From: an uncultured Acidobacteriota bacterium
Lineage (GTDB): Bacteria > Acidobacteriota > UBA6911
Reading direction: 5' to 3'
Length of the DNA stretch: 64,000 bases
Assembly (NCBI GenBank): GCA_963761825.1
Contig: CAVXIH010000005.1
Coordinates: forward strand, 74,992-138,991
The position numbers and the translations under genes were made by a program. Below the pieces are notes generated by a model that did no database searches, had not been told where the DNA came from, and saw only the letters and a list, made by a program, of their open reading frames with translations. Below, piece after piece: positions 48,056 through 62,613 of the stretch. Numbering within the stretch: position 1 is the stretch's first letter; the number at the start of each line of letters is the position of its first letter.

Positions 48056-49261
48056 TTAGCACAATCCGCGGAAGGGAGACAGGGCGCGGTCGAGGACACC
48101 CAGGGAATAGGTGATGGCGACTCCATAGTTGGTGATCGGGACGCGGGCTTCGCGGCAGCGCATAATGCGGGAAATCACTTCGCGCCGGTTCAGCATGCAC
48201 GCGCCGCACTGGACGATCAGCTGATAGGAACTAATATCTTCGGGAAAATCGTGTCCTTGCCGGTGCACAAATTCCAGGTCCACTCCCGTATACTGCCGAA
48301 TCCAGCGGGGGATCTTGACTCTTCCGATGTCTTCGCCGATCGGGTGGTGCGCGCAGGACTCCAGAACCAGGATGCGGTTTCCGGGCTGCAGCGTGTCGAT
48401 GGTTTTGACTCCGCGCACGAACTCCTTCAGATCGCCTTTCAAACGCGCAAACAGGATTGAAAATGACGTCATCGGGACCTGGCTGGGCGTATCGCCCGCG
48501 ACCCGCAGGAACGCCTGGGAATCCGTGACTACGAGGGCCGGCGGATTTTTGAGTTTATCCAGCGCATCCTGCAGTTCGCGCTCTTTAACCACCATGCAGC
48601 AGGAATCATGATCCAGGACATCGCGGATCGACTGCACCTGCGGCAGGATGAGTCTTCCCTTCGGGGCTTCCAAATCGATGGGGACGACCAGGACCACAAC
48701 TTCGCCGGGATTGATCAAATCGCCTAATACCGGGGGAGAGTCCATAAATTCCTCCGGCGCTGTGCGTATCAGGGCTTCCCGAAGCTCAAGCATGCCTTTG
48801 CCCTGGCTGGCGACCGTCTCCACGACGGGGAGATTGCGGGACTTGAGATTTTGCAGCACCTCCGCGCGCGGCGCACCGCAATCGCTCTTATTGAACACCA
48901 CGATGACGGGCACCTTGCGTTTCAACATTTCAGCCAGGATGCTCTCTTCGAACTCTCCCCAGCAATTTCCTTCTGCCACCAGGATTCCCATATCCGTGCG
49001 CTCAAAAATAAGCCGCGTCCTCTCGGCCCGCATTTCACCCAGGGCGCCGACGTCATCGATGCCTGCCGTATCGATAAACAGGACTGGCCCGAGCGGCAGC
49101 AGCTCCATTGGTTTTTCCACCGGATCCGTGGTCGTTCCCGGCACATCCGAAACAATGGAAACCTGCTGGCGGGTCAACGCATTCAGCAGCGAGGATTTAC
49201 CCACATTGCGCCGGCCGAACAGTCCGATATGCAGCCGCATTCCTTTCGGCGTGTCTTTCAT
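48056..49261 (-). CDS. hydF: [FeFe]-hydrogenase maturation GTPase
   Basis: GRRNVGKSS, GTTTDPV, DTAG, APKGRLILPQ, TDSQAF, ESCAHH, QCGACM. Confidence 0.97.
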   Translation of the reverse strand: MKDTPKGMRLHIGLFGRRNVGKSSLLNALTRQQVSIVSDVPGTTTDPVEKPMELLPLGPVLFIDTAGIDDVGALGEMRAERTRLIFERTDMGILVAEGNCWGEFEESILAEMLKRKVPVIVVFNKSDCGAPRAEVLQNLKSRNLPVVETVASQGKGMLELREALIRTAPEEFMDSPPVLGDLINPGEVVVLVVPIDLEAPKGRLILPQVQSIRDVLDHDSCCMVVKERELQDALDKLKNPPALVVTDSQAFLRVAGDTPSQVPMTSFSILFARLKGDLKEFVRGVKTIDTLQPGNRILVLESCAHHPIGEDIGRVKIPRWIRQYTGVDLEFVHRQGHDFPEDISSYQLIVQCGACMLNRREVISRIMRCREARVPITNYGVAITYSLGVLDRALSPFRGLC

Positions 49262-50763: not shown

Positions 50764-52191
50764 CTAAAAATAGAGATCGCGGTCATCTGTCTGGCGTATT
50801 TGACGCAGCCGCTTTTCCAGTTCTTCTTTTTGCGGACCCGGTTCAAGCCGTGCCAGTTCTGCCTGTATCAGCGCTTCTCCCGCTTTCCGAGTCTCGGGCG
50901 ATGCATAGTCCACCAGGTACTCCGTCAGCGTGGAAATGGCATTGGGCGTGCAATACCGCTTGATGAATCCCGGAATGGCAAATTCCATAAAATGCTCGCC
51001 CGTGCGCCCGAGCCGGTAGCAGGCAGTGCAGAAACTCGGCACATAGCCGTCCTGCATGAGTTCTTGCATGACTTTGTCCAGCGACCGGATATCCCCAAGC
51101 TCGAATTGTTCCCGGTCGGCAAGCTGCGTGTCTTCCTTTTCCGTGTATCCGCCGATTTCGATCCGGCTGCCCGCATCGATCTGAGAGACGCCGTACTTCA
51201 TCAGTTCCCGACGCAGCGGCGCGTTTTCGCGGGCGGTAAGGATCAGTCCCGTGTAGGGAACAGCCAGGCGCAGCGTTGCGATCACGCGCTTAAAATCGCC
51301 GTCGCTGGACAGATCCCAGATCCGGGGAAATTCACGCCGCACGCCGGACGCAGGCGCGGGAAGCTGATCGTATGCGGCCCGACTCCATAGCGCTTCTGGA
51401 GATACAAGGCGTGCGCCACAAGGCCCAGCACTTCGAACCGCCAGTCATACAAGCCGAAAAGCACGCCGATCCCCACATCGTCGCACCCGGCTTCCAGAGC
51501 GCGGCTCAATCCGTCGAGCCGGTACAGGTAATTGCCCTTGCGCGTGCGCGGCGAATGCACGCCGGCATAGGTTTCATGATGATACGTTTCCTGGAAAATC
51601 TGATACGTGCCGATCCCGGCCGCTTTAACGATCCGGTATCCCTCATGATCCATGGGCGCCGCATTGATATTGACTCTGCGGATTTCCCCGTGCCCGTTGC
51701 GCGTGGCATACACCGTGCGCACGCTTTCGGCCATGAAATCGGCGTCGTATCCTGGATGCTCGCCGAAAACCAGGATCAGCCGCTTTTGCCCCGAAGCTTC
51801 GAGCTTCACCACCTGTTCGCGCAATTCTTCGAGTGTCAGAGTGCGCCGCACCGAGAGCTTATTGCTGCTCTGAAATCCGCAATAGGAACAGTCATTGACG
51901 CACTCGTTGCCCACATAGAGAGGAGCGAAAAGCACAATCCGGTTGCCGTAGACGGTTTCCTTCAGTTTCTGGGCAGTCTGAAAAACGCTGTCGAGCAGCT
52001 CGGGATCATCCGTGCGAAGAAGGACTGCAGTCTCTTCAACGCTGAGCGGCTGCTTGGCAAGGCTTTTCGCGATGATGTCCTGCACCCGGCTTCGCTCCGG
52101 CGGCGCGCCGGCGAGCAGCTGCATAAAATATCCGTCATCGATAAAATCAACGGCGCCCTTGACTTAGATCCATTTTGGGCAATCCAGACAT
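50764..52191 (-). CDS. hydG: [FeFe]-hydrogenase maturation radical SAM protein, frameshifted
   Basis: FAPLYVGNECVNDCSYC, FQETYH, HTISFP, SQIDAGS, PSFCTACYR, YCTPNA. Confidence 0.95.
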
Positions 52192-52321: not shown

Positions 52322-53455
52322 TTACGCAGCCTTGAGAGTATTGTGAAGCGTCACGGTAAACGTGCTGCCGATATCCGGCTTGCTTTTGACAGTGATTTCG
52401 CCGTTGTAGAGCGTGACGAGCTTTTTCAGCGTGGACAGTCCCAGGCCGCTCCCCAGGATATTGCGGGTTTTTTCGTTCTTGATTCTTGAGAAGTCGCTGA
52501 AGAGGCGCTGGGTTTCTTCCTGGGTCATGCCGATTCCGGTGTCTTCCACCTGGATTCGGATTTCATCTCCGGTCATGCCGACCGTGACACCGACACGCCC
52601 CTGGTCCCGGTTATATTTCACCGCATTGGAAATAAGATTATTGAAAATCATCTCGATCTCCGTGCGGTCCGCCTCCATGAACAATCCGGCGGGCACATCC
52701 AGCTGAACCGAGATACTGCGGCGCTCGATCTCCGCTTTGACGTTTTCGATCGCCTGGCGGGCGACGTCCGACAGATCGACCGCGGTCGGCGTGCGTTGTC
52801 TCTGCCCGGACTCGATGGAAGTCAAGTCCAGCAGATCCGTGATCAGCTTTCGCATTCCTTCGATACGGATCAGGCACCGATCCAGCATGTGATCGTAATC
52901 TTCCAGCTTGTTGCCGACCGAGCGTTCATGGATCATCTGGAGATAACCCTCGATGGCGGCGATGGGAGCCTTCATCTCATGGGCCAGAACGGAGATGAAC
53001 TGAAAACGCACCTGCCGTTTTTCCTCGGCCAGCCTGCGGGCCTGCCGCTGCAGGATGAGGTGCCGCGCTGCCTTGCGCACCGCGCCGCGCAGTTCCTCCG
53101 GTGTAAACGGTTTGGCCAGGAAATCGTAGGCGCCGCGGCGCGTAGCGGTGACGGCGGTATCCAGCGAGGCATAGGCGGTAATCATGATGACCAGGAGGTC
53201 GAGAGAGCTTTTGCTGAGCCGGTCCAGGATATCCAGGCCGGTGGTATCCGGCAGCTTGTGATCGAGAATGAGAATGTCGGTCGGCCCTTCACTCATCTTC
53301 TCTTCCAGTTCCTTGCCGGTGGCCGCCGTCCTTATGTCGAATCGGACCTCACCGCCAATATCGGGAAGACTCACAATGATATCCCGCAGCGCCCGCTCGG
53401 CGCCTCGCCGCATGCCAAATTCGTCATCCACGATGAGGATGTTCAGGATATCCAC
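52322..53455 (-). CDS. Hybrid receiver-histidine kinase
   Basis: REC domain (ILIVDDE, LDHKLPD, KPF), then HEMKAP, NLISNAVKY, DTGIG, GSGLGL. Confidence 0.93.
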   Translation of the reverse strand: MDILNILIVDDEFGMRRGAERALRDIIVSLPDIGGEVRFDIRTAATGKELEEKMSEGPTDILILDHKLPDTTGLDILDRLSKSSLDLLVIMITAYASLDTAVTATRRGAYDFLAKPFTPEELRGAVRKAARHLILQRQARRLAEEKRQVRFQFISVLAHEMKAPIAAIEGYLQMIHERSVGNKLEDYDHMLDRCLIRIEGMRKLITDLLDLTSIESGQRQRTPTAVDLSDVARQAIENVKAEIERRSISVQLDVPAGLFMEADRTEIEMIFNNLISNAVKYNRDQGRVGVTVGMTGDEIRIQVEDTGIGMTQEETQRLFSDFSRIKNEKTRNILGSGLGLSTLKKLVTLYNGEITVKSKPDIGSTFTVTLHNTLKAA

Positions 53456-53472
53456 TTCTTCCGCCTTTCGTA

Positions 53473-53856
53473 TTAAAGTTTGCCGCTCAAAAGCTTGTCC
53501 GCTTCATCCGCCAGCACGCGCGGATTGATGGGCTTTTCCAAAAACTTGCTGACCGGCAGCCAGGTCTCGTCGGGCTGGAACGTGTAGCCGAGCCGCATCT
53601 CCTTGCTGATGCCCGTCAGCATGATCATGGGCATGGTGGGATACAGGGCGTGCAACCGGCGGGCAAGTTCGAAACCGGCGGTCTTGTCTTCCATCATGAC
53701 ATCCAGCACGGCAAGGTCGGGCTCTTCTGTTTGCGCGATCTTCTGGGCTTCGGCCGAGGAATACGCCACATGGACGGTGTGGCCCCGTTGAGCAAACACG
53801 GTTCGGTTCATTTCGATAAGGTCCTGATCGTCATCCACCAACAGTATCTGGGCCAT
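53473..53856 (-). CDS. Single-domain response regulator
   Basis: ILLVDDD, VLDVMM, MLTG, EKP. Confidence 0.93.
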   Translation of the reverse strand: MAQILLVDDDQDLIEMNRTVFAQRGHTVHVAYSSAEAQKIAQTEEPDLAVLDVMMEDKTAGFELARRLHALYPTMPMIMLTGISKEMRLGYTFQPDETWLPVSKFLEKPINPRVLADEADKLLSGKL

Positions 53857-53887
53857 TGCAATCTCCTTTTCCCATATGATGTCGGAT

Positions 53888-55886
53888 TTACTCTTCCGGA
53901 GCCTTCCGGGGGAGTTTAACCGTAAATTGAGTTCCCGTCTGCCCCGCAGACGGATCGTTATTGGACATCATCATGATGTCCCCCCGGTGCATCTTGACAA
54001 TGCCGTAGGTGACGGCAAGCCCGAGTCCGGTCCCTTTTCCGATCTGCTTGGTTGTAAAAAATGGTTCAAAAATCTTTCCCTGGTTTTCCTTGGAAATTCC
54101 GCTTCCCGTGTCTTTGATCGAGAACCAGACATCGCGCTCGTTGCTGCCGATGCTGATCGTGAGACTGCCTCCATCGGGCATGGCGTCGCACGCATTGCTG
54201 AACAGATTGGTGATGACCTGGTTGATCTGGTCCGGGTCCAGATCGACTTTCGGATTTTCAATCGCCGATTCGATGCGTGCCTGAATATTGGCGGGGAACG
54301 GGTACGCTTTCACCGCGCGCTGCATCAGCTTGCAGAGATCCACGATGCGGAAGACCGCCTTATTCTGCCGCGCAAAGTGGAGCAGGCGGACGACGATCTT
54401 TTTGCACCGGTCGGCCTGCTCCGCGATCATGTCGAGATCTTCGCGCCAATCCGGGAATTTTTCCGCCTGCTCCAGCAGCATGTGCGCATGCATCAGAACG
54501 ATGCCGAGCGGATTATTGACTTCGTGCGCCACGCCTGCGGCCAGTTGTCCCATGCTGGCGAGCCGCTCCGAATGCATGAGCGCTTCCTGCGTGCTGACCA
54601 GTTGCTGATGGGAAACCGCCAGCTGCTTGACGGTATCGCGCAGTTTGTCGATGGTGTAGGGCAGGCACATTTCGGTTTCGGCCAGCCGGAGATGAATGGC
54701 GATCGCGTGCTGGACGCAGGAATCATACCCGCAGGCGCCGCAGTTAAGCTCATCTTCCGGTTTCACTTTGCCCATCCGGGCAAGAATCTTGGAAATTTCT
54801 TCGCGGGACGGCGGCGTAAAGCGCTGATCATGGGTACTGAATTCCCGCGACAGATCTATGTCGGAAAATGTTGCGACATCCTGTTCCCACTGTTGCTTGT
54901 GTTCTTCGGTCCAGCGCTTCTGAACATAGTTCCCGACGAGGCTGCGCCGCCGAAAGAGAGCGGCGCTGGTGGTCATGCCGGCGCCCATGATGCAGCCATT
55001 GCAGCAGAGGATTTCCAGCAGGCGCGCAGTCCACACTGTTCGACTCGACCGCTTGAATCGCCTCCACGAAGCTGGTGCGGCCATCCGTAGCCATTACTTC
55101 CCCGGTTCATCAAATTCTCCTGGATATCCGCCGCCTGCAGCAATCCTCGGCTGATCGGGAACAAACCTCCCGGGCCGCTCCACGGCGGATCAAACTCACT
55201 GGCCTCAACGGTTTCCGGACGGACACCTGCTTCGCCAAGCATCTGTCGGAGTTCCCGAACGTCAACACGGCATCAACGTCCCCTTCCAGCTTTTCGCTGG
55301 CGGCTTCGCCTTTTTTTGCGATGCAGGGACCGATGAACACCACGGGCACTTCCGGCCCGTACAGACGGTGCACGATCCGGGCGGCGGCGACCATAGGGGA
55401 AACGATCGGGGCGAGCTTGGGGACAAGATCGGGATAATACCGCTCGACATATCCGACAAGCGCCGGGCAGGTCGTGGCGATATAATTGGTCCTGTCCGGG
55501 CTGTCCAGAAGCTCCCGATAGCGCCGGGCGACGAGGTCGGCGGCGAATCCGACTTCGTGGACATATCGAAACCCAGCGCCCGCAGCATCCCAACAACTTT
55601 TTCGTACTCGACATTCCTCGAATTCCGCAGGAAAGCTCGGCGCCATGAGGGCTGCGACGGCTCCGCCCTGATTCAGCAAATGCTTGACCTGCTGCGTCCC
55701 GTCCAGCACCTTCTTGGCGCCCTGGCTGCAAACCCGGGCGCAGTTGCCGCAGCCGATGCAGCGTTCCGGGATGACGTTGGCCTGGCCGTCCGAAATTCCG
55801 ATCGCCTTGGCCGGGCACTCCCGCACGCATGTGTAGCAGACCCGGCATCGCTCTTTGATCGTCTGTACGAAACATGCAGATTGCAT
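53888..55886 (-). CDS. Sensory [FeFe]-hydrogenase-like domain fused to a histidine kinase (group C type), frameshifted
   Basis: Two 4Fe-4S motifs (CRVCYTCVREC, CIGCGNC); IATTCPA, IGPCIAKKGE, EILCCNGCIMG; NCGACGYDSC FeS domain; AHEVNNP, NACDAM, GKGTGLGL. Confidence 0.85.
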
Positions 55887-55896
55887 GGTTGCCCCG

Positions 55897-56314
55897 TTAA
55901 TGGCCTGTCGAGGGAGTATGCTCCGGTTCTTCGTTGAGCAATCTGCGGACTTCAGCCTTCAGCTGTTCCGGCCGGACAGGCTTATCCATGATCTTATCCA
56001 CTTTGATCCAGGACTGCTCGTCCGCATGCCGTGCCGAAAAGGACAGTCCCGTCGCCCCGGCAACGGCAGTCAGCAGGATCACAGGCATTTCCGGGTACAG
56101 CTTTTTGAGCTGATGGCTGAGCACGAAACCGGAGTCTTTCTCCTCCATCATCAGATCCAGAACGGCCAGATCCGGCTTCACCTTGAGGATCGCTTCCTCG
56201 GCCTCCCGCCTGTCCTTCGGCTGCAGTCACATCATATCCCGCGGCGGTCAGCATAGCGGTTATTTGTTCGAGGAGATCCAAATCATCGTCCACGACCAGT
56301 ATTTTCTTTTTCAC
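55897..56314 (-). CDS. Single-domain response regulator, frameshifted
   Basis: KILVVDDD, VLDLMM, LLTA, DKP. Confidence 0.88.
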
Positions 56315-56368
56315 TCTCGTAATCTCCCTTTCTTCAAACTTGCTTCAGCCCGTCCGCACAATCTATCT

Positions 56369-58086
56369 CTACAGCACATCCCTGGGATCGTAGTGGGTAT
56401 GAAGCAGGCTGTGACTCTTCTCGCCGAGCGGCTTCCCGAGAAACTCATCATACAGCCGAACGATATAGGGATTCTTGTGGCTGACGCGAGCCTTTTCGTT
56501 CTGGTCGATTTTGTACAGCGCCTGCATGCGGGCGCGCGCGGCGTTGATATCGGCGTTGATCGGCTGCCCGCCGCCGTTGATGCATCCGCCGGGGCAGGTC
56601 ATGACCTCGATGAAATGAAGATCCTTGCGGCCGGCCCGGATCTCTTCCAGCAGTTTGCGGGCGTTGCCGAGGCCGCTCACGACCGCGGCGCCGACTTCCA
56701 GGTCGCCGATCTTGGCGCGGAGTTCCTTGGCGCCCTTCATCCCGCGCAGCGGCTGAATGTCCAGCTTGGCCATTTCCTTGCCGGTGAGCAGATAGTGTGC
56801 CGTGCGGACCGCCGCTTCCATCACGCCGCCGCTGGCGCCGAAAATCTTGCCGGCCGTGGACCGTTCGCCGAACGGCGTATCGGCCGTCTGCGGAGTCATC
56901 GCCAGCAAGTCCACGCCATACATGCGCAACAGCTGCCCCAGTTCCCGCGTCGTCAGCACATAATCCACATCCGGGACATGATCCGGAGCCATTTCCGGGC
57001 GGCTGCTCTCAAACTTCTTGGCGGTGCACGGCATGATCGAAACGCTGACAATCTGCGCCGGATCGATGTTTTCGCGCTGCGCAAAGTAGCTCTTGATGAT
57101 CGCGCCCATCATCTGCTGCGGGCTTTTGCAGGACGACAGGTTCGGGATGAATTCAGGATAGAACTGCTCCACAAACTTGATCCAGCCCGGCGAACAGCTC
57201 GTGAACATCGGCAGGGCGCCGCCCGTGCTGAATCCGCTGCGCCAATTCGGACGCTTCTTCCATGATGGTCAGGTCGGCCGTGAACGATGTGTCGAACACG
57301 CGGTCGAATCCGATGCGCCGCAGCGCCGCGACCATCTTGCCGTCGACATCCTGGCCGGGTTCCATGCCGAATTCCTCGGCCAGGCTGACCGAAACCGACG
57401 GAGCGTGCTGCACGACAACCAGTTTCTTCGGATCCTCGAGCGCCGCGATCACTTCTTCCAGATACGACCGTTCGGTGAGCGCGCCGGTGGGACAGCCGAC
57501 GATGCACTGGCCGCAATTGATGCAGGTCGACACATTCAGGCCCTGGTCAAACGCCGTGCCGATGTATGCCTTGCAGCCGCGGCCGACAAAATCGATGGCC
57601 CCGATGCCCTGGATCTCTTCGCAGATGCGCACGCAGCGGCCGCACAGGATGCACTTCTCCGGATCCCGGACGATGGGACCGGAGACGTCCTTTTCCTGCT
57701 CATTCCGTTTGCCCCGGAACATGCGCTGCCGGATGCCCATGCTTTGCGACAGCTGCTGCAGATCGCATTTGCCGCTCCGCGCGCAGTAGAGGCAGTCATC
57801 CGGGTGATTGCTCGAGGAGCAGCTCGACAATCGTCCGGCGCGCGTCCAGCACTCTCGGCGAACGGGTCTGAATTTTCATCCCCGGAGCCACGGGAAAGGA
57901 GCATGCCGGAACAAAGTTCTGCGCCCCTTCCATTTCCACGATGCACATGCGGCATGCGCCGCTCGGCAGCAGCCCTTCCATGTGGCACAGGGTCGGGACG
58001 TGAATCCCTTCCCTTTTCAATGCCGAGAGAATCGTCTCTCCATCTTTTGCTTCAATAGTCCTGCCATCCACTTGCATTTCAATCAT
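56369..58086 (-). CDS. hydA: [FeFe]-hydrogenase catalytic subunit (group A, M3 architecture), frameshifted
   Basis: 2Fe-2S, His-ligated 4Fe-4S (NHPDDCLYC) and two 4Fe-4S sites; H-cluster motifs TSCSPGW, MPCTAKKFE, EVMTCPGGCING. Confidence 0.95.
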
Positions 58087-58116
58087 ATCTTCACCTCAAT
58101 CCATGCATCCAATCTG

Positions 58117-61100
58117 TCAGTGCGGTTGCGTGAATTCCAGATCGCAGCGCGCACAGCGCCGCGCTTCCGCCAGTACATTCTCTTCGCTCGGGCACAATTC
58201 CACTTCAGCGAAACATTTCTTTCGCTGCGCGACCGGCAGCAGCGGCAGTTCCAGCCGATAGGTTTCTCCGGTCTCCTCGTCCACTTCCATGAAAGGCTCC
58301 ACATAGATCGAGGGGAGCTTGACTTTGGGCAGGACCTTCATAAGCTTGCCCGATACGTAGCGGTCGATCATGGCCGCCGCCTGCTTGCCCACGGCAATCG
58401 CGGCGATCACCGTGCTCGGACCGCTGACGACATCGCCGCCGGCGAATACGCCTTCCCTGCTGGTGATAAAGGATTCTTCGTTGATCTTAACGGTTCCCCA
58501 CGAAGACAGGCCGAGGCCTTCCAGCCCGGCCGGTTCCGGCTCCTCGCTGATCGCGACAATCAGCGTGTCCAGTTCCACATCGAACTCCGAGCCTTTGACC
58601 GGGACCGGTTTGCGCCGGCCGGATGCATCCGGGGCGCCCAGCTGGTTGCGCAGCGAACGCAGGCCGGTCAAACGCCCTCCGCTGCTGTGAACCGCCACCG
58701 GAGTAACCAGCTCTTCCAGGATGACGCCTTCCGCGAGTCCGGCCTCGACTTCTTCTTTGTAGGCCGGCATTTCTTCGCGGCGTGCGGCGATAGAAGACGG
58801 TCACGCTCTCGACTCCGGGCTGGCGGATCGCTACGCGCGCCGCATCCATGGCCGAGTTGCCGCCGCCGACGATGCCGACGCGACCGCGCGCCATCGACTT
58901 GCCTTCAAGGTTGTAGGCCTTGAGGAACTTGATGCCGGGGATGATTCCGGCAACCTCTTCGCCCGGCAGATCAAGCTTCTTGCTGGCGTGGGATCCGGTT
59001 GCGATGAAAACGGCTTTATAGCCATCCTCGAACAGCTTGTCGATCGTAAAGTCGCGGCCCAGAGCCTGCCCGAAACGCATTTCGATATTCTGATTCATCA
59101 GGGCCGCGATTTCCCTCTGCAGGCCTTCGCGCGGCAGGCGGTATTCAGGGATGGCGGCCGTCAGCATCCCGCCGGCCATCCCTTCGCGCTCAAACACCGT
59201 CACGCGGTGCCCGAGCGCGGAAAGTGAATTCGCCGCAGTCAGGCCGGCCGGCCCGGCGCCGATGACGGCGATGCGCGCTGCGTCCTTGCCCGCCGGCACA
59301 ATCGGCGATCTTGCCGGGCGCAACCACGCTGTCGACCACAAAGCGCTTCAGCGTCCGGATAGCGATAGGCTCGCCTCCGGTCGCGCCCGCACGGCAAACC
59401 TGTTCGCACGGATGATGGCAAACGCGGGCACAGGCGGAAGGGAACGGGTTGGCTTCGCGGATCACGCGGTAGGCGTCGTCGTACTCGCCGCGCGCGATGT
59501 GCGCCACATAGCGCCAGACCTCGGTGCCGACCGGGCAGCCGTTCTGGCAGGGCGCTCCGACCAGGTCCTTGCACGACCCGGACGGGCAGCGGCGCTCGAA
59601 AACATGCGCTTCATATTCATCGCGGAACCACTTGCAGCGTGCTCAGCACCGGATTCGGCGCCGACTGACCCAGTCCGCACAGGCTGGTGGACCGGATGGT
59701 TTCAGCCAGCTTCTTCAGGTGCATGATTCCCTGGACGCGCAACAGAGCATCCAGATCGCTCTCCTTGTGGCGCGGACGCGTGATGGCTTCCAGGATTTCC
59801 AGCATGCGCCGCGTCCCTTCACGGCAGGGAATGCATTTGCCGCAGCTCTCGTTCTGGATGAATTCCATGAAGTATTTGGCAAAATCGACCATGCAGGTGG
59901 ATTCGTCCACCACAACCAGTCCGCCCGACCCCATGATCGTGCCGAAGTTTTTCAGTTCTTCGTAATCCGTCGGCAGATCCATGTGCGCCTCCGGCACGCA
60001 ACCGCCGGAAGGGCCGCCGATTTGAACTGCTTTGCATTTTTTGTTACCGGGAATGCCGCCGCCGATGTCGAACACGACTTCACGAAGAGACGTTCCCATC
60101 GGGATCTCCACAAGCCCGGTTCGTCTTAACCATGCCGGAGAGCGCGAAAACCTTCGTTCCTTTGCTCCCCTTGGTCCCCATCGCCGCATACCATTCGGCG
60201 CCGCGATCCAGGATGACAGCCAGGTTTGCCAGAGTTTCGACGTTGTTGATGACGGTGGGTTTGCCGAACAAACCCTGGACTGCGGGGAACGGAGGACGAG
60301 GCCGCGGCATGCCGCGCTTCCCTTCTATCGAGTGGATCAGGGCCGTCTCTTCGCCGCACACAAATGCGCCGGCGCCCATTTTCATTTTGATCGAGAAATC
60401 CACGCCGCTGTCGAGGATGTTATAGCCGATCAAGCCGCAGGCGGACGCCTGCTCAAACGCCTCGCTGAGCCGCTGGATCGCCAGCGGGTATTCAGCGCGG
60501 ATATAGACGTACGCCTTGGTGGCGCCTATAGCGTAGGCCGCAATCAGCATGCCTTCGAGCAGCCGATGCGGATCGCTTTCGCAGACCGCTCGATCCATAA
60601 ATGCGCCGGGATCCCCTTCGTCGGCGTTGCAGATCAGGTATTTCTGATCGGCTGCGGCAGCCCGCGCAAATTTCCACTTTTTGCCGGTAGGAAAACCTCC
60701 GCCGCCGCGTCCGCGGAGTCCGCTCTTCTCGATCAGATCGCAGACCGCATCCGGCGTCATCGTTCTTAGAACTTTTGCGATCGAACCATAGCCGCCGTGC
60801 GCGATGTATTCATGAATGTTGCCGGGATCGATGATGCCGCTGGAAGCAAGCACTACGCGAACCTGGCTCGCAAGGAACGGATGCTCGTCGAGGTTTGCGA
60901 TCCCGTCCCAGGGCTTGGCGCTGCCTGCGCGATACTGGCCCAGAACCAATTCGGTAGGAATGCGGTTCTCGAGCAGCACCGCATCAAGCACTTCCGGAAC
61001 CTTGTCGGCCGTGACCGTGCTGAAACTCACGCGCGCGCGGCCGGGGACCTGAATGTCCATGATCGGTTCGTCGGAACACATGCCGTTGCAGCCGACTTCA

Positions 61101-61393
61101 ACGACATCCGCATTGATATTGTGCTGTTCCAGGAATTCCCGGACGGCTGCAAGGGTTTTGCCGGCTCCGGCGCCCAGGCCGCATGTGCCTGCGCCCACGA
61201 AAATCGCGGGCTGCGCCACCGTATCGCGCCTCAGTGAAGCCAGCACGGCCGCCAGTTCCCGGGGACCTTTGGCCCTCGCGTTGACAAAGAGGTCGGCTTT
61301 GAGGTCCTTCAGCAGGGTGTCGGATATTTCACTAAAATTGACCCAGCATTTGCCGGCACCATCTATGATTGCAGTATCAGTATTAGCGGCCAT
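58117..61393 (-). CDS. HydB/NuoF-like flavoprotein fused to a GltD/NfnA-like FAD oxidoreductase (about 1090 aa), several frameshifts
   Basis: Thioredoxin-like 2Fe-2S; [47 protein letters not shown]; in-frame continuation into APCQNGCP...[35 protein letters not shown]. Confidence 0.88.
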
Positions 61394-61856
61394 TCTTAGA
61401 CTCCATTTCCCTACATTCCTGTATGATTTTGACCAGCTTCTGGGGCGTGACTTTGGCGTAAAACTCGCCGTTAAGGTTCATCACCGGCGATAAGCCGCAG
61501 GCGCCCATGCAGGCAACAGTTTCCAGGCTGAACAGGCGGTCTCTGGAGGTCTGGCCCGGCTTCAGCTTCAGCAGTTTCTGAGCCATTTCCAGCACCCGGT
61601 TGGATCCTTTGACGTGGCAGGCCGTTCCCCGGCAAACCATGACGTGATACTTGCCTTTAGGCTGAAAGCGGAACTGGTTGTAAAAGGTCGCAACCCCGAA
61701 AATTTTTGTGGTCGGAAGATTGAGATGCTTGCCGATGCGGACAACCGCTTCGCGAGAAAGATAGCCCTGATTTTCCTGGACTTCCTGCAGGATCGGGATG
61801 AGTGCGTCGCGCCCGGCGCGGGGGTGCTTCTTTAGTATCGAATCCACATCATTCAT
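61383..61856 (-). CDS. hydC: HydC/NuoE-like 2Fe-2S subunit
   Basis: LIPILQEVQ, ATFYNQF, VCRGTACH, CMGACGLSP. Confidence 0.93.
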   Translation of the reverse strand: MNDVDSILKKHPRAGRDALIPILQEVQENQGYLSREAVVRIGKHLNLPTTKIFGVATFYNQFRFQPKGKYHVMVCRGTACHVKGSNRVLEMAQKLLKLKPGQTSRDRLFSLETVACMGACGLSPVMNLNGEFYAKVTPQKLVKIIQECREMESKNGR

Positions 61857-62542
61857 AAATTGATCTCCTTATTAACCGTTTCGGAAGCCGGCTTTTTAAG
61901 AGCGGGTCTTTCCGATTTCAGAGACTGGCGCGCAAAATACGCCACTCGGTCCATCGACATCGCCAGATCGATGTCTTCGACATAAACACCGGACGGCACG
62001 TGCAAAGCAGTTCGCGCAAAATTCAGGATGCCGCGGATGCCCGCTTCCACATACACATCCGATACATATTGAGCTTCCTTGTCGGGAACCGCGATGATTC
62101 CGACCGTAATGCACTGCTCCCGAATAACGCTCGCAGCATTCTCGATGGAGTAGCATGGACAACCGTGGATCAAGCGGCCAAATTTATCGGGATTGGTTTC
62201 TAATGAGGCCACGATTTTGAGGGTTGGCCGGCGGCCGAGAAAAAACTTCAGAAGGGCGCGCCCGATATTGCCGACACCGGCGATAATGGCTCGCTGTTCT
62301 TCGGCCGGGAAAACGAATGCTTCGATATGATCCCGGAGTTTTTTGACATCATACCCCCGGGCAGGAGTGCCGGAGTACCCTACGACCATGAGGTCGCGTC
62401 GCACCTGGGCGGCTGTGACGCGTGATCTTGAGGCAAGATCGTGCGAATAAATATAGGTTTCTCCTTCACTCGCGAGATCTCTAAGTATACGCCAGTAAAG
62501 AGTTAAGCGCCCAATAGTCCTATACGGCACCGCATCAACCAT
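61853..62542 (-). CDS. rex: Redox-sensing transcriptional repressor
   Basis: RLTLY, QVRRDL, GY, GVGNIGRAL, IIAVP, GILNFA. Confidence 0.93.
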   Translation of the reverse strand: MVDAVPYRTIGRLTLYWRILRDLASEGETYIYSHDLASRSRVTAAQVRRDLMVVGYSGTPARGYDVKKLRDHIEAFVFPAEEQRAIIAGVGNIGRALLKFFLGRRPTLKIVASLETNPDKFGRLIHGCPCYSIENAASVIREQCITVGIIAVPDKEAQYVSDVYVEAGIRGILNFARTALHVPSGVYVEDIDLAMSMDRVAYFARQSLKSERPALKKPASETVNKEINL

Positions 62543-62565
62543 ATATTCCTCGTTACGCGAGTCGC

Positions 62566-62594
62566 ATTGTGAATTATTTCACAATATGTGTCAA
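62566..62594 (-). promoter_or_regulatory. Sigma70 promoter overlapped by a Rex operator
   Basis: TTGTGAA-TTAT-TTCACAA (62567-62584) matches the Rex consensus; on the minus strand TTGACA (62594-62589), 17 nt, CACAAT (62571-62566). Confidence 0.85.
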
Positions 62595-62613
62595 GCGAAA
62601 TATTGTTAAAAAG

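Follow-up and report, generated by a model that had tools for sequence, protein, structure and literature searches.

Along the minus strand of the 64 kb stretch of Acidobacteriota DNA analysed here (the window), ORF calls and Pfam searches place, in this order, rex, hydC, a gene fusing a NuoF to a GltD module (NuoF::GltD) and hydA (Table 1). The 3' end of rex overlaps the start of hydC by 4 nt, and in 53 of 71 loci rex is the gene immediately upstream of hydC. The predicted Rex box, TTGTGAAATAATTCACAA, is the only zero-mismatch match within the 64 kb window; 24 of 53 orthologous loci have a TGTGA-N6-TCACA box upstream of rex. We infer that rex-hydC-hydB::gltD-hydA is a Rex-controlled operon, in which Rex would tie expression to the NADH/NAD+ ratio.

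In 39 of 51 loci HydS-HK, ~665 aa long in relatives, is encoded downstream of hydA; the domains of its orthologues are Fer4, Fe_hyd_lg_C, PF04060, HisKA and HATPase_c. This HydS-type sensor kinase and the response regulators nearby probably supply an H2 signal. hydG is split by a frameshift, its two TIGR03955 pieces covering profile positions 8-284 and 294-469. With hydE located elsewhere, the genome holds the full set of hydE, hydF and hydG maturases. Neither in the window nor in the loci of relatives does the operon include an NfnA-like partner gene, and it has no conserved ferredoxin gene.

Table 1. Features of the hydrogenase locus (window positions, except hydE).
Feature	Position	Strand	Evidence and remarks
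Rex operator (predicted)	62567..62584	.	perfect palindrome; 5' of rex, just 3' of a TTGACA hexamer
rex, NADH/NAD+ redox-sensing repressor	61853..62542	-	229 aa ORF; orthologues with PF06971 and PF02629
hydC / bfuC, NuoE-like [2Fe-2S] subunit (cluster C1)	61383..61856	-	intact, 157 aa; PF01257, E 6.5e-51
NuoF/BfuB part of fusion	59556..61393	-	Pfam; PDB matches to BfuB subunits
GltD/NfnB-like part of fusion	58117..59555	-	Pfam; PDB ranking
hydA / bfuA, [FeFe] hydrogenase catalytic subunit, M3a type	56369..58086	-	~572 aa; Pfam Fe_hyd_lg_C, Fe_hyd_SSU
Response regulator (receiver domain)	55897..56314	-	tblastn with L001 response regulator, 71% identity; same position in relatives
HydS-HK, sensory [FeFe]-hydrogenase-like protein fused to histidine kinase	53888..55886	-	tblastn; two frames in window
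Second response regulator	53473-53856	-	ORF; tblastn against L001 RR2 / RR_HK, 60% and 74% identity for this and the next gene
Receiver-histidine kinase hybrid	52322-53455	-	ORF; tblastn as for the preceding gene
hydG, radical-SAM H-cluster maturase	50770..52154	-	TIGR03955 in two pieces, 273 and 193 bits
hydF, GTPase H-cluster maturase	48080..49252	-	TIGR03918, 561.5 bits (cut-off 325.55)
hydE	C8:291141-292169, elsewhere in genome		maturase

Subunits and the fusion junction

HydA contains the Pfam domains Fer2_4, NADH-G_4Fe-4S_3, Fer4, Fe_hyd_lg_C and Fe_hyd_SSU. A sequence-only reading of this DNA had credited it with all three H-cluster motifs, and these are indeed present (TSCSPGW, MPCTAKKFE and EVMTCPGGCINGGGQP), with L1 being TSCSPGW rather than the textbook TSCCPxW. 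The same TSCSPGWIKF occurs in the solved, active HydA1 of Acetobacterium woodii (PDB 7q4v) and in 61 of 65 orthologous HydA genes. In the PDB it matches T. kivui HydA1 (8a6t_A, 613 bits) and A. woodii HydA1 (7q4v_A) best, and the orthologue in relative L001 reaches 828 bits against NF040763, 'NADH-dependent [FeFe] hydrogenase, group A6' (cut-off 765). HydA also retains its [2Fe-2S] and His-ligated cluster motifs and is, judged by sequence, a complete catalytic subunit.

The fusion (61393-58117, ~1090 aa) contains the Pfam domains Complex1_51K, NADH_4Fe-4S, Fer4_20 and Pyr_redox_2. Its NuoF part comprises an N-terminal thioredoxin-like domain with a three-cysteine pattern in the alignment, an FMN/NADH site, the B1 [4Fe-4S] cysteines (ESCGKCIPC...SLCGLG) and then a hinge motif, and its PDB matches are BfuB subunits (7t2r_B, 9n5u_B, 9bov_B, 8oh5_B, 7q4v_B and 8a6t_B; 598-636 bits). 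The hinge, FRDEYEAH...RCPxGxCKxL, is the canonical one of BfuB and aligns residue for residue with those of T. kivui and A. woodii HydB, StnB and A. mobile HydB. GltD homology begins right behind it. Read directly, the junction passes from the hinge motif to the GltD iron-sulfur region in one frame without a stop, whereas unfused paralogues in the same genome have a normal CxxCxxCxxxCP domain at this place. A Pfam search of the fusion found no Fer4 dicluster domain after the NuoF part, bearing out the earlier statement that this HydB lacks the usual C-terminal two-[4Fe-4S] ferredoxin domain. The DPGAFMDR variant, which had been called typical of bifurcating HydB, does mark the HydB/Bfu-type NuoF paralogues of this genome against two other, complex I-like NuoF-type copies; it does not split bifurcating from non-bifurcating forms.

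The GltD part has a Fer4_20 (DPD_II) region holding two cysteine groups, one of them APCQNGCP... The FAD Rossmann and NADP-type motifs that had been noted in it are both there: IGAGPAGL belongs to an FAD fold and VGGGNSAMD...FYRR to an NADP(H)-type fold. In its GxGxxA plus YRR signature the latter agrees with the NADP(H)-type motif that PMC7483475 describes for StnC. The part ends in a ~70-aa tail closing with RCLRCD, which is conserved across all fusion types. Its PDB matches rank NfnA first (9bov_A, 346 bits; 9n5u_A, 333), followed by StnC (8oh5_C, 303), NfnB (4ylf_B, 246), NfnL (5jca_L, 222) and GltD (190), and among the PDB matches compared the ~70-residue tail aligns only with NfnA/StnC. 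These alignments place the GltD module of the fusion in one lineage with the GltD insert of StnC/NfnA. The motifs indicate that a GltD-like module, with its two [4Fe-4S] sites and its FAD and NADP(H)-type folds, has taken the place of the ferredoxin-type B3/B4 domain.

Reading-frame breaks and distribution

The fusion had been said not to depend on the repair of indels. This holds for the junction, but four frameshifts interrupt the fusion gene itself and two interrupt hydA. In each case the window has one base more than the intact relative L004: at 60124 and 59631 in the NuoF part, 59302 and 58781 in the GltD part, and 57814 and 57227 in hydA. When the extra bases are skipped, the fusion frame is open to its terminal stop. 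The K of KWFRDEY in the window is a product of the extra base at 59631; relatives have QWFR or KWFR in one continuous frame. Differences between the window and L004 amount to 7.3%, 3.5% and 36.4% at the three codon positions. Since all six changes are single extra bases and the differences are concentrated at third codon positions, the frameshifts are most likely assembly errors, and the operon is therefore probably functional. A decaying pseudogene cluster, in which the six frameshifts would be real, seems very improbable. Six frameshifts within 5 kb do point that way, as do the further ones in hydS, hydG and a response regulator (55897..56314, a one-base insertion near 56204). However, indels in neighbouring genes also fit an unpolished long-read assembly of 16 contigs, the frameshifts in hydB and hydA are all +1 insertions, and an intact orthologue was found in at least 13 of 24 other species searched in the genus.

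Intact NuoF::GltD frames of 1085-1118 aa occur in at least 575 species genomes. They are found in close and distant relatives, with identity up to 95%, so the fusion is no local accident. An adjoining H-cluster HydA, which the sequence-only reading had proposed to count, directly follows the fusion in 65 of the 66 loci with enough flank, and the remaining one also has a HydA match (L053). The design is found across hundreds of uncultured anaerobes. Because the junction is in one frame, orthologues are intact, frameshifts are +1 only and differences follow codon position, the comparison indicates a genuine fusion that is under selection. Further NuoF::GltD fusions, in this genome and elsewhere in the genus, share the fusion point and RCLRCD tail, and their partners differ: a first group has a molybdopterin/formate-dehydrogenase-like subunit (this genome's copy at C8:304846-311300), a second a different HydA (~50% identity), and a third NuoG-like proteins without an H-domain.

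Coupling of H2 to NAD(H) and NADP(H)

HydC and the NuoF core of HydB keep the parts of the Bfu 'flavobicluster', namely the FMN/NADH site and the B1 [4Fe-4S] and C1 [2Fe-2S] cysteines (CRGTAC...CMGAC in the HydC translation), as well as the His/Cys hinge. The minimal bifurcation site has been defined as B1-FMN-C1 (Li et al. 2025, PMC11829005), and all of its ligands are present in HydC and the fusion. The most likely reading, to which we give an even chance, is that the locus encodes a soluble three-subunit HydABC/Bfu-type [FeFe] hydrogenase coupling H2 to both NAD(H) and NADP(H), the latter substituting for ferredoxin. NAD(H) would react at FMN and NADP(H) at FAD, at the end of the branch normally leading to ferredoxin. 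H2/H+ would be equilibrated with both pyridine nucleotide pools, the overall reaction being NADH + NADPH + 2 H+ <-> 2 H2 + NAD+ + NADP+. If so, lower-potential NADPH would help a fermenting cell to drive H2 release from NADH without ferredoxin. The earlier proposal of a hydrogenase with NAD(H)/FMN and NADP(H)/FAD sites and no ferredoxin-type domain is consistent with all the sequence evidence.

H2, NADH and NADPH lie thermodynamically close together, so bifurcation is not required and both sites could act independently. A non-bifurcating, dual-specificity hydrogenase, exchanging H2 with NAD(H) at FMN and NADP(H) at FAD over one shared iron-sulfur chain and using either nucleotide alone with no energetic coupling, is a serious though clearly less probable candidate. 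It can be pictured as an NAD(P)H-dependent [FeFe] hydrogenase that, like the S. wolfei type, needs no ferredoxin, and that has an additional NADPH port. This locus lacks the B3/B4 domain on which bifurcation is held to depend, and HydB without B3/B4 is described as non-bifurcating in the account of Zheng and Huang (PMC11406978), citing Syntrophomonas wolfei, which counts against the coupled reading. Work on StnC showed that its equivalent FAD does not bifurcate and is a plain NADPH entry point (Kumar 2023, PMC10482914), and NCBIfam calls this HydA type 'NADH-dependent'. However, an uncoupled two-site enzyme would also be a free NADPH-to-NAD+ transhydrogenase, dissipating the NADPH/NADH disequilibrium, and the hinge and full set of flavobicluster ligands are conserved across phyla, which would be unexpected had gating been lost.

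It is unlikely that the enzyme is ferredoxin-dependent, with H2, ferredoxin and NAD(P)H all involved. The GltD FAD would then be a second, NfnB-like bifurcating flavin, or ferredoxin would dock on HydA, which could still bind it at its N-terminal clusters and which keeps its [2Fe-2S] and His-ligated cluster motifs. The GltD fold does bifurcate in NfnAB, the T. maritima NfnB match reaches 246 bits, and an extra FAD bifurcation centre was postulated by Zheng and Huang (PMC11406978). Against this, the operon offers no NfnA-like partner or other second exit path for the FAD and no conserved ferredoxin gene, and the GltD module is nearer the non-bifurcating StnC/NfnA form than NfnB. A Stn/NfnABC-type transhydrogenase with an inactive hydrogenase-like subunit can be practically dismissed: the NuoE, NuoF and GltD modules are those of the Stn/Nfn-Bfu lineage, but the third subunit has a full H-domain with three H-cluster motifs and a score above the [FeFe] hydrogenase cut-off, the maturases are present, and the third subunit of Stn is NuoG/Fdh-like and itself bears the GltD domain.

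Relation to known systems

NfnAB/NfnSL (PDB 4ylf, 5jca) also have a GltD-like large subunit with two [4Fe-4S] clusters, FAD and an NADPH site. However, in NfnB the FAD is itself the bifurcating site and NfnA has to provide a second exit, and the ~70-aa tail is missing. The non-bifurcating NADH-dependent [FeFe] hydrogenase of S. wolfei, as described in PMC7483475 and PMC11406978, is likewise a three-subunit HydABC whose HydB is without C-terminal [4Fe-4S] clusters; by that description its lost domain is not replaced, whereas here an NADP(H)/FAD module stands in its place.

StnABC/NfnABC (Nfn-Bfu; PDB 8oh5, 9bov, 9n5u) resemble this locus in their NuoE and NuoF modules, down to the 'SCG...GCxGxC' N-terminal domain, and in the GltD lineage with a tail ending in RCLxC; in them NADPH enters at the non-bifurcating FAD. 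The sequence-only reading had placed a NuoF-GltD fusion in StnB, but the 65 kDa NuoF-like StnB keeps two C-terminal [4Fe-4S] sites and it is the 128 kDa StnC that has the GltD-like domain, joined there to a NuoG-like one (Kremp 2020, PMC7483475; Kumar 2023, PMC10482914). 'StnB-like' is therefore the wrong label. In those complexes GltD is inserted in NuoG-like StnC/NfnA, the NuoF-like subunit retains B3/B4 for ferredoxin and there is no H-cluster, whereas here the NuoF subunit bears GltD and a true hydrogenase forms the third subunit.

Also among the closest known systems are the electron-bifurcating HydABC of A. woodii, T. kivui and Thermotoga maritima (PDB 7q4v, 8a6t, 7p5h). HydA aligns with their A. 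woodii and T. kivui counterparts at 573-613 bits, TSCSPGWIKF is identical to A. woodii, and the NuoE-like HydC, the HydB core with FMN and B1, and the hinge motif are shared. However, these enzymes keep the C-terminal ferredoxin-type B3/B4, the proposed route to ferredoxin, where this locus has GltD, and their N-terminal HydB domain has four cysteines rather than three.

The same architecture has been described from genomics as the 'sub-type I BfuABC' group A3 [FeFe] hydrogenase (Zheng and Huang 2024, mSystems, PMC11406978). That description is purely genomic, and our literature search found no biochemistry on any member of the NuoF::GltD hydrogenase family. In sub-type I, as here, the B3/B4 of BfuB is replaced by DPD_II (two [4Fe-4S]) and a C-terminal FAD/NAD(P) domain, BfuA is of M3a type with serine fifth in motif P1, and the gene order is C-B-A. 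BfuD is missing from forms that were described in several phyla (PMC11406978). That study centred on Hydrogenedentota, and the match is by described features; the present locus is an Acidobacteriota member of this architecture. Beside the sub-type I genes it has rex and a perfect Rex box upstream, and the HydS-histidine kinase set, hydG and hydF downstream.

Operon layout and the frameshifts

The operon under study encodes Rex, HydC, a NuoF::GltD fusion and the catalytic subunit HydA. Pfam assigned to the fusion, in order, the domains Complex1_51K, NADH_4Fe-4S, Fer4_20 and Pyr_redox_2, and to HydA the domains Fer2_4, NADH-G_4Fe-4S_3, Fer4, Fe_hyd_lg_C and Fe_hyd_SSU. A sequence-only reading of the locus had described a NuoF part running in one frame, free of stops, into a GltD part. 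Direct reading of the junction confirmed this, and FYRR and the other motifs named for the fusion were found in the window sequence. The junction motif quoted there as KWFRDEY is present except for its first letter, the K being an effect of the surplus base at 59631; QWFR stands in the close relatives P0001 (a fusion protein) and L004 (an orthologous locus), and KWFR in more distant ones.

Operon and maturase genes, with their positions in the window
Gene	Position	Strand	Remarks
rex	62542-61853	minus	redox-sensing repressor
hydC	61856-61383	minus	NuoE-like, 157 aa, intact
NuoF::GltD fusion	61393-58117	minus	four frameshifts
hydA	58086-56369	minus	two frameshifts
hydF	48080-49252		maturase
hydG	50770-52154		maturase, frameshifted
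hydE	different contig of the source genome		maturase

As the reference for the frameshift alignment we used L004; it comes from an NCBI metagenome-assembled genome, and its fusion protein shares 92% identity with that of the window. Every frameshift in the fusion and in hydA corresponds to one surplus base in the window relative to L004; the fusion has four such bases (60124, 59631, 59302 and 58781) and hydA two (57814 and 57227). We read the frameshifts as probable assembly errors. When the surplus bases are skipped, the fusion frame is open as far as the terminal stop. The window and L004 differ by 7.3%, 3.5% and 36.4% at codon positions 1, 2 and 3, the pattern of a gene subject to purifying selection. 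Comparable one-base indels occur in neighbouring genes (a response regulator, hydS and hydG), and the source genome assembly consists of 16 contigs. Across window positions 53800-62600, of which 7.4 kb aligned to L004, the single-base changes within coding regions comprise about ten insertions and two deletions, none in an obvious long homopolymer. Other broken genes of this assembly are unsafe to read as pseudogenes without checking.

The fused flavoprotein and its hydrogenase partner

Ligands for the FMN site and for cluster B1 (SLCGLG) are present in the fusion, and those for cluster C1 (CRGTAC...CMGAC) in HydC. Together these would form the B1-FMN-C1 flavobicluster, the minimal bifurcation site, which comprises FMN and the B1 [4Fe-4S] cluster in BfuB and the C1 [2Fe-2S] cluster in BfuC (Li et al. 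2025, PMC11829005). The usual C-terminal ferredoxin-type domain is missing, as had been noted from the sequence; Pfam found no Fer4 dicluster (clusters B3/B4) after the NuoF part. Alignment with solved BfuB subunits gave the canonical hinge as FRDEYEAH(V/I)xx(R/K)(R/K)CPxGxC(K/Q)xL. This hinge, which may be the B2 site, is common to the fusion, the HydB subunits of T. kivui and A. woodii, StnB and A. mobile HydB. The B2 position has been described as holding a Zn ion (Li et al. 2025). Homology of the GltD type starts directly after the hinge, at APCQxGCP, the point at which the unfused NuoF paralogues on contigs C1 and C9 of the source genome have a normal CxxCxxCxxxCP ferredoxin-type domain. 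These two features place a predicted NADP(H)/FAD module on the hinge that normally bears B3/B4.

The N-terminal domain of the fusion has a three-Cys pattern ending in GCNGMC, as in StnB and in Csac and archaeal NfnB, and lacks the N-terminal four-Cys pattern of A. mobile HydB. Published work assigns to this domain a [2Fe-2S] site in Sporomusa and a Zn site in Caldicellulosiruptor. Fusion residues 1-60 (window ~61393-61210) form an extension before the thioredoxin-like domain that is kept in close relatives; this stretch of about 60 residues is unmatched in the solved BfuB subunits, alignments with which begin at residue 63-65.

By its motifs, the GltD module would contain two clusters, an FAD fold and an NADP(H)-type fold with GxGxxA and YRR. 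Among solved structures it scored highest against Csac NfnA (9bov_A, 346 bits), followed by archaeal NfnA (9n5u_A, 333 bits), StnC (8oh5_C, 303 bits), T. maritima NfnB (4ylf_B, 246 bits), P. furiosus NfnL (5jca_L, 222 bits) and GltD itself (2vdc_G and 6s6s_G, ~190 bits). The alignment with NfnA and StnC extends through a tail of about 70 residues ending in EAxRCLxC, and the stand-alone NfnB, NfnL and GltD chains stop short of it. This common tail, together with the RCLRCD motif kept in all NuoF::GltD fusions examined whatever their partner, places the module, at the level of sequence, in one lineage with the GltD insert found in Stn and Nfn-Bfu transhydrogenases. The FAD of that insert has been demonstrated to admit NADPH without bifurcating (PMC10482914).

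HydA has all three H-cluster motifs, as claimed before: TSCSPGW (L1), MPCTAKKFE (L2) and EVMTCPGGCINGGGQP (L3). The group A motifs used for comparison were TSCCPxW, MPCxxKxxE and ExMxCxxGCxxGxGQ, so that in L1 a Ser replaces the second Cys of the textbook form. A. woodii HydA1 (7q4v), an active enzyme, has the identical TSCSPGWIKF, and 61 of 65 orthologues have TSCSPGW, with SSCSPGW at one locus. In the alignment with CpI (CpI numbering) this Ser, within window positions 57190-57208, falls at Cys300, presumably one of the residues that bind the [4Fe-4S] subcluster of the H-cluster. In that case active enzymes, A. woodii HydA1 among them, would naturally have Ser in place of a cluster ligand. 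Zheng and Huang (PMC11406978) also report Ser as common here in four of their five A3 sub-types. Since the motif is identical in A. woodii HydA1 and common in these sub-types, the Ser variant is no argument against an H-cluster. We rejected the idea that TSCSPGW marks a degenerate, Stn-like subunit devoid of an H-cluster, because active A. woodii HydA1 shares it. A full-text literature search for 'TSCSP' returned nothing relevant.

Family scores were obtained with the HydA of the orthologous locus L001, the frameshifted window HydA scoring in pieces only. The L001 protein reached 828.3 bits (cut-off 765) on NF040763, the NCBIfam model 'NADH-dependent [FeFe] hydrogenase, group A6', and 502.7 bits (cut-off 405.95) on TIGR02512. 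The best solved relatives of HydA are the catalytic subunits of bifurcating HydABC from T. kivui (8a6t_A, 613 bits) and A. woodii (7q4v_A, 573 bits). The source genome encodes all three H-cluster maturases: HydF (561.5 bits) and HydE (351.8 bits), each above its own cut-off, and HydG, found in two pieces (273 and 193 bits) with a frameshift between them. The only catalytic H-domain found in that genome is the one in the window.

A putative Rex operator, TTGTGAAATAATTCACAA, lies upstream of rex at 62567-62584, directly past a TTGACA hexamer, and is the sole zero-mismatch match in the 64-kb window; a looser, three-mismatch pattern was no more frequent in the window than expected by chance. The exact box TGTGA-N6-TCACA occurs at the equivalent place in 24 of 53 orthologous loci. 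On its 3' side the operon is followed by genes for two response regulators, with that for a sensory hydrogenase-like histidine kinase between them, and then by one for a receiver-kinase hybrid. The kinase gene (53888-55886) encodes a histidine kinase joined to a sensory hydrogenase-like protein, for which relatives show the domains Fer4, Fe_hyd_lg_C, PF04060, HisKA and HATPase_c; two receiver proteins and the receiver-kinase hybrid surround it, the second receiver and the hybrid at 52322-53856. This set of HydS-kinase and receiver genes looks like an H2-sensing signalling set.

Distribution and partners of the NuoF::GltD unit

Searching with the fusion returned thousands of protein matches. 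The best 120 share at least 72% identity over the junction region, and most of these are 1085-1104 aa long; P0001, at 1090 aa, is 95% identical to the window protein. Named matches come from Acidobacteriota, Planctomycetota and Lentisphaerota. In the neighbourhoods of four matches (P0001, P0050, P0072 and P0002), NuoE, the fusion and a HydA of 571-573 aa occur together in all four, rex upstream in three, and HydS-histidine kinase and radical-SAM genes downstream in two.

When one genome was scanned for each species, the junction turned up in at least 575 genomes, which makes this a large enzyme family. The best 80 loci are without exception from metagenome-assembled genomes, and their labels include, besides the three phyla above, Myxococcales, Elusimicrobia, WOR-3, Eisenbacteria, Latescibacterota, Spirochaetes, Thermodesulfobacteriota and Longimicrobiales. 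HydA is encoded immediately 3' of the fusion in 65 of the 66 loci whose flank extends for 1.9 kb or more, and the 66th has a HydA match too. Among the same best 80, rex lies directly 5' in 53 of 71 loci and the HydS-histidine kinase 3' in 39 of 51. Such recurrence, with an identical continuous frame and the same neighbours at 66 independent loci, led us to reject an assembly chimera as the origin of the fusion. Of the 24 further species of the genus that were searched, at least 13 have an intact orthologue, whereas an even sample of the phylum gave only 11 matching genomes out of 301.

HydA-linked fusions of nine differently labelled lineages form one clade (100/100 support) with short internal branches in a tree built from the NuoF part, and on this basis their distribution would fit transfer between phyla. 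NuoF::GltD fusions as a whole are not cleanly one clade in this tree, in which just two unfused Bfu-type paralogues were sampled, and the unfused paralogue on contig C1 nests among fused ones (96/97).

The source genome has a second NuoE and NuoF::GltD operon (C8:304846-311300; locus L095 1346-7801). Its fusion is ~50% identical and is frameshifted too, and its third subunit is NuoG-like/molybdopterin, formate-dehydrogenase-like, with no HydA. With HydA in one operon and a formate-dehydrogenase-like subunit in the other, the NuoF::GltD unit serves at least two catalytic partners within one organism. Two other genomes of the genus carry a second, divergent HydA-linked operon (L096 3633-11887 in G022; L098 3547-11392 in G023), whose fusion is 52% identical over NuoF and 40% over GltD, with HydA identity of 44-51% and a rex-like and a HydS-like gene downstream. 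At least two distinct hydrogenase lineages of the genus use the fused flavoprotein. Seven more NuoE and NuoF::GltD operons (L099-L105, in G023, G030, G027, G100, G083, G244 and G199) are followed by a gene that matches the N-terminal NuoG-like part of HydA only, with no H-domain and no molybdopterin match. Given HydA, formate-dehydrogenase-like, divergent HydA and NuoG-like partners within this genome and genus, the unit looks like a portable module. Three further NuoE/NuoF/NuoG-like sets lie at C1:127033-129958, C9:194967-198274 and C13:207403-210278, and the C1 and C9 NuoF copies, at least, have the canonical B3/B4 ferredoxin-type domain; the source organism is unusually rich in Bfu-type modules.

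Proposed function and comparison with known systems

The complete HydA, the B1-FMN-C1 ligands, the hinge and the GltD module together suggest an enzyme that links H2 to both nucleotide pools. NAD(H) would react at FMN and NADP(H) at FAD, the terminus of the former ferredoxin branch, according to NADH + NADPH + 2 H+ <-> 2 H2 + NAD+ + NADP+. We give this assignment of both nucleotides, each linked to H2, roughly an even chance. The working potentials tabulated by Schut et al. (PMC9304861) are ~-280 mV for NADH, ~-380 mV for NADPH and -414 mV for H2 at 1 bar, from which we calculated a mean donor potential of ~-330 mV. By calculation, H2 release would be favourable up to ~100 Pa with NADH plus NADPH, compared with a few Pa for NADH alone. 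A fermenter would thereby gain a ferredoxin-free hydrogen valve, which Rex would turn on as NADH accumulates.

A more speculative proposal, which we put forward tentatively and think somewhat improbable, is a ferredoxin-free Bfu enzyme in which B1-FMN-C1 splits or merges electron pairs between two nucleotides (2 H2 + NAD+ + NADP+ <-> NADH + NADPH + 2 H+), with NADP(H) as the low-potential partner, bound to a GltD module that hangs from the hinge of the usual ferredoxin domain. NuoF::GltD would in that case be a portable 'two-nucleotide' module, given its pairing with formate-dehydrogenase-like and other catalytic subunits. If NADP(H) replaces ferredoxin, the enzyme would be a natural system in which to test the disputed mechanism of Bfu bifurcation, with a low-potential exit that can be traced optically via NADPH. 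It would also mean ferredoxin-independent H2 release from NAD(P)H by fermenting bacteria; carriers of the fusion, which come from soils, fens and sediments, include Acidobacteriota, Planctomycetota, Lentisphaerota and many candidate phyla. The family would be of high interest if nucleotide-nucleotide confurcation were shown, this locus itself being of moderate interest.

The sequence-only reading was right in its observation and partly supported in its interpretation. It took NuoE plus a NuoF-GltD fusion to be the established StnA/StnB architecture, which is wrong, as the GltD-like domain belongs to StnC. StnB (65 kDa) resembles NuoF and has two [4Fe-4S] sites at its C-terminus, and StnC (128 kDa) joins a GltD-like to a NuoG-like domain (PMC7483475, PMC10482914). 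The link to Stn holds for the lineage of the GltD module and fails for the arrangement of modules. In StnABC the GltD-like domain sits in the NuoG-like third subunit, which has no H-cluster, whereas here it sits on the NuoF-like subunit, and HydA has a full H-domain and no GltD. The two C-terminal [4Fe-4S] sites of StnB are missing in the fusion. In NfnAB (NfnSL), an FNR-like NfnA/NfnS partner with [2Fe-2S] and a second FAD adjoins the GltD-like subunit; no NfnA/NfnS-type gene was found in the window operon or orthologous operons.

Literature searches for NuoF/GltD/HydB and for HydABC/NADPH/NfnB returned Stn and Nfn-Bfu papers only, and we found no paper on the biochemistry of the NuoF::GltD hydrogenase form. 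A term search of the Bfu classification paper (PMC9304861) gave no mention of the fusion. Zheng and Huang (2024, PMC11406978) describe a sub-type I BfuB with modules termed 'DPD_II' and 'FAD', state that such co-existence 'has never been reported', and postulate a novel bifurcating mechanism without experiments. As described there, sub-type I BfuABC carries DPD_II plus an FAD/NAD(P) domain where B3/B4 would otherwise be, and the window fusion likewise has Fer4_20 and Pyr_redox_2 in frame. The locus is a further member of an already described kind of enzyme, not a new kind, to which it adds a new host lineage, a Rex/HydS regulatory setting and a link to the StnC/NfnA lineage of GltD modules.
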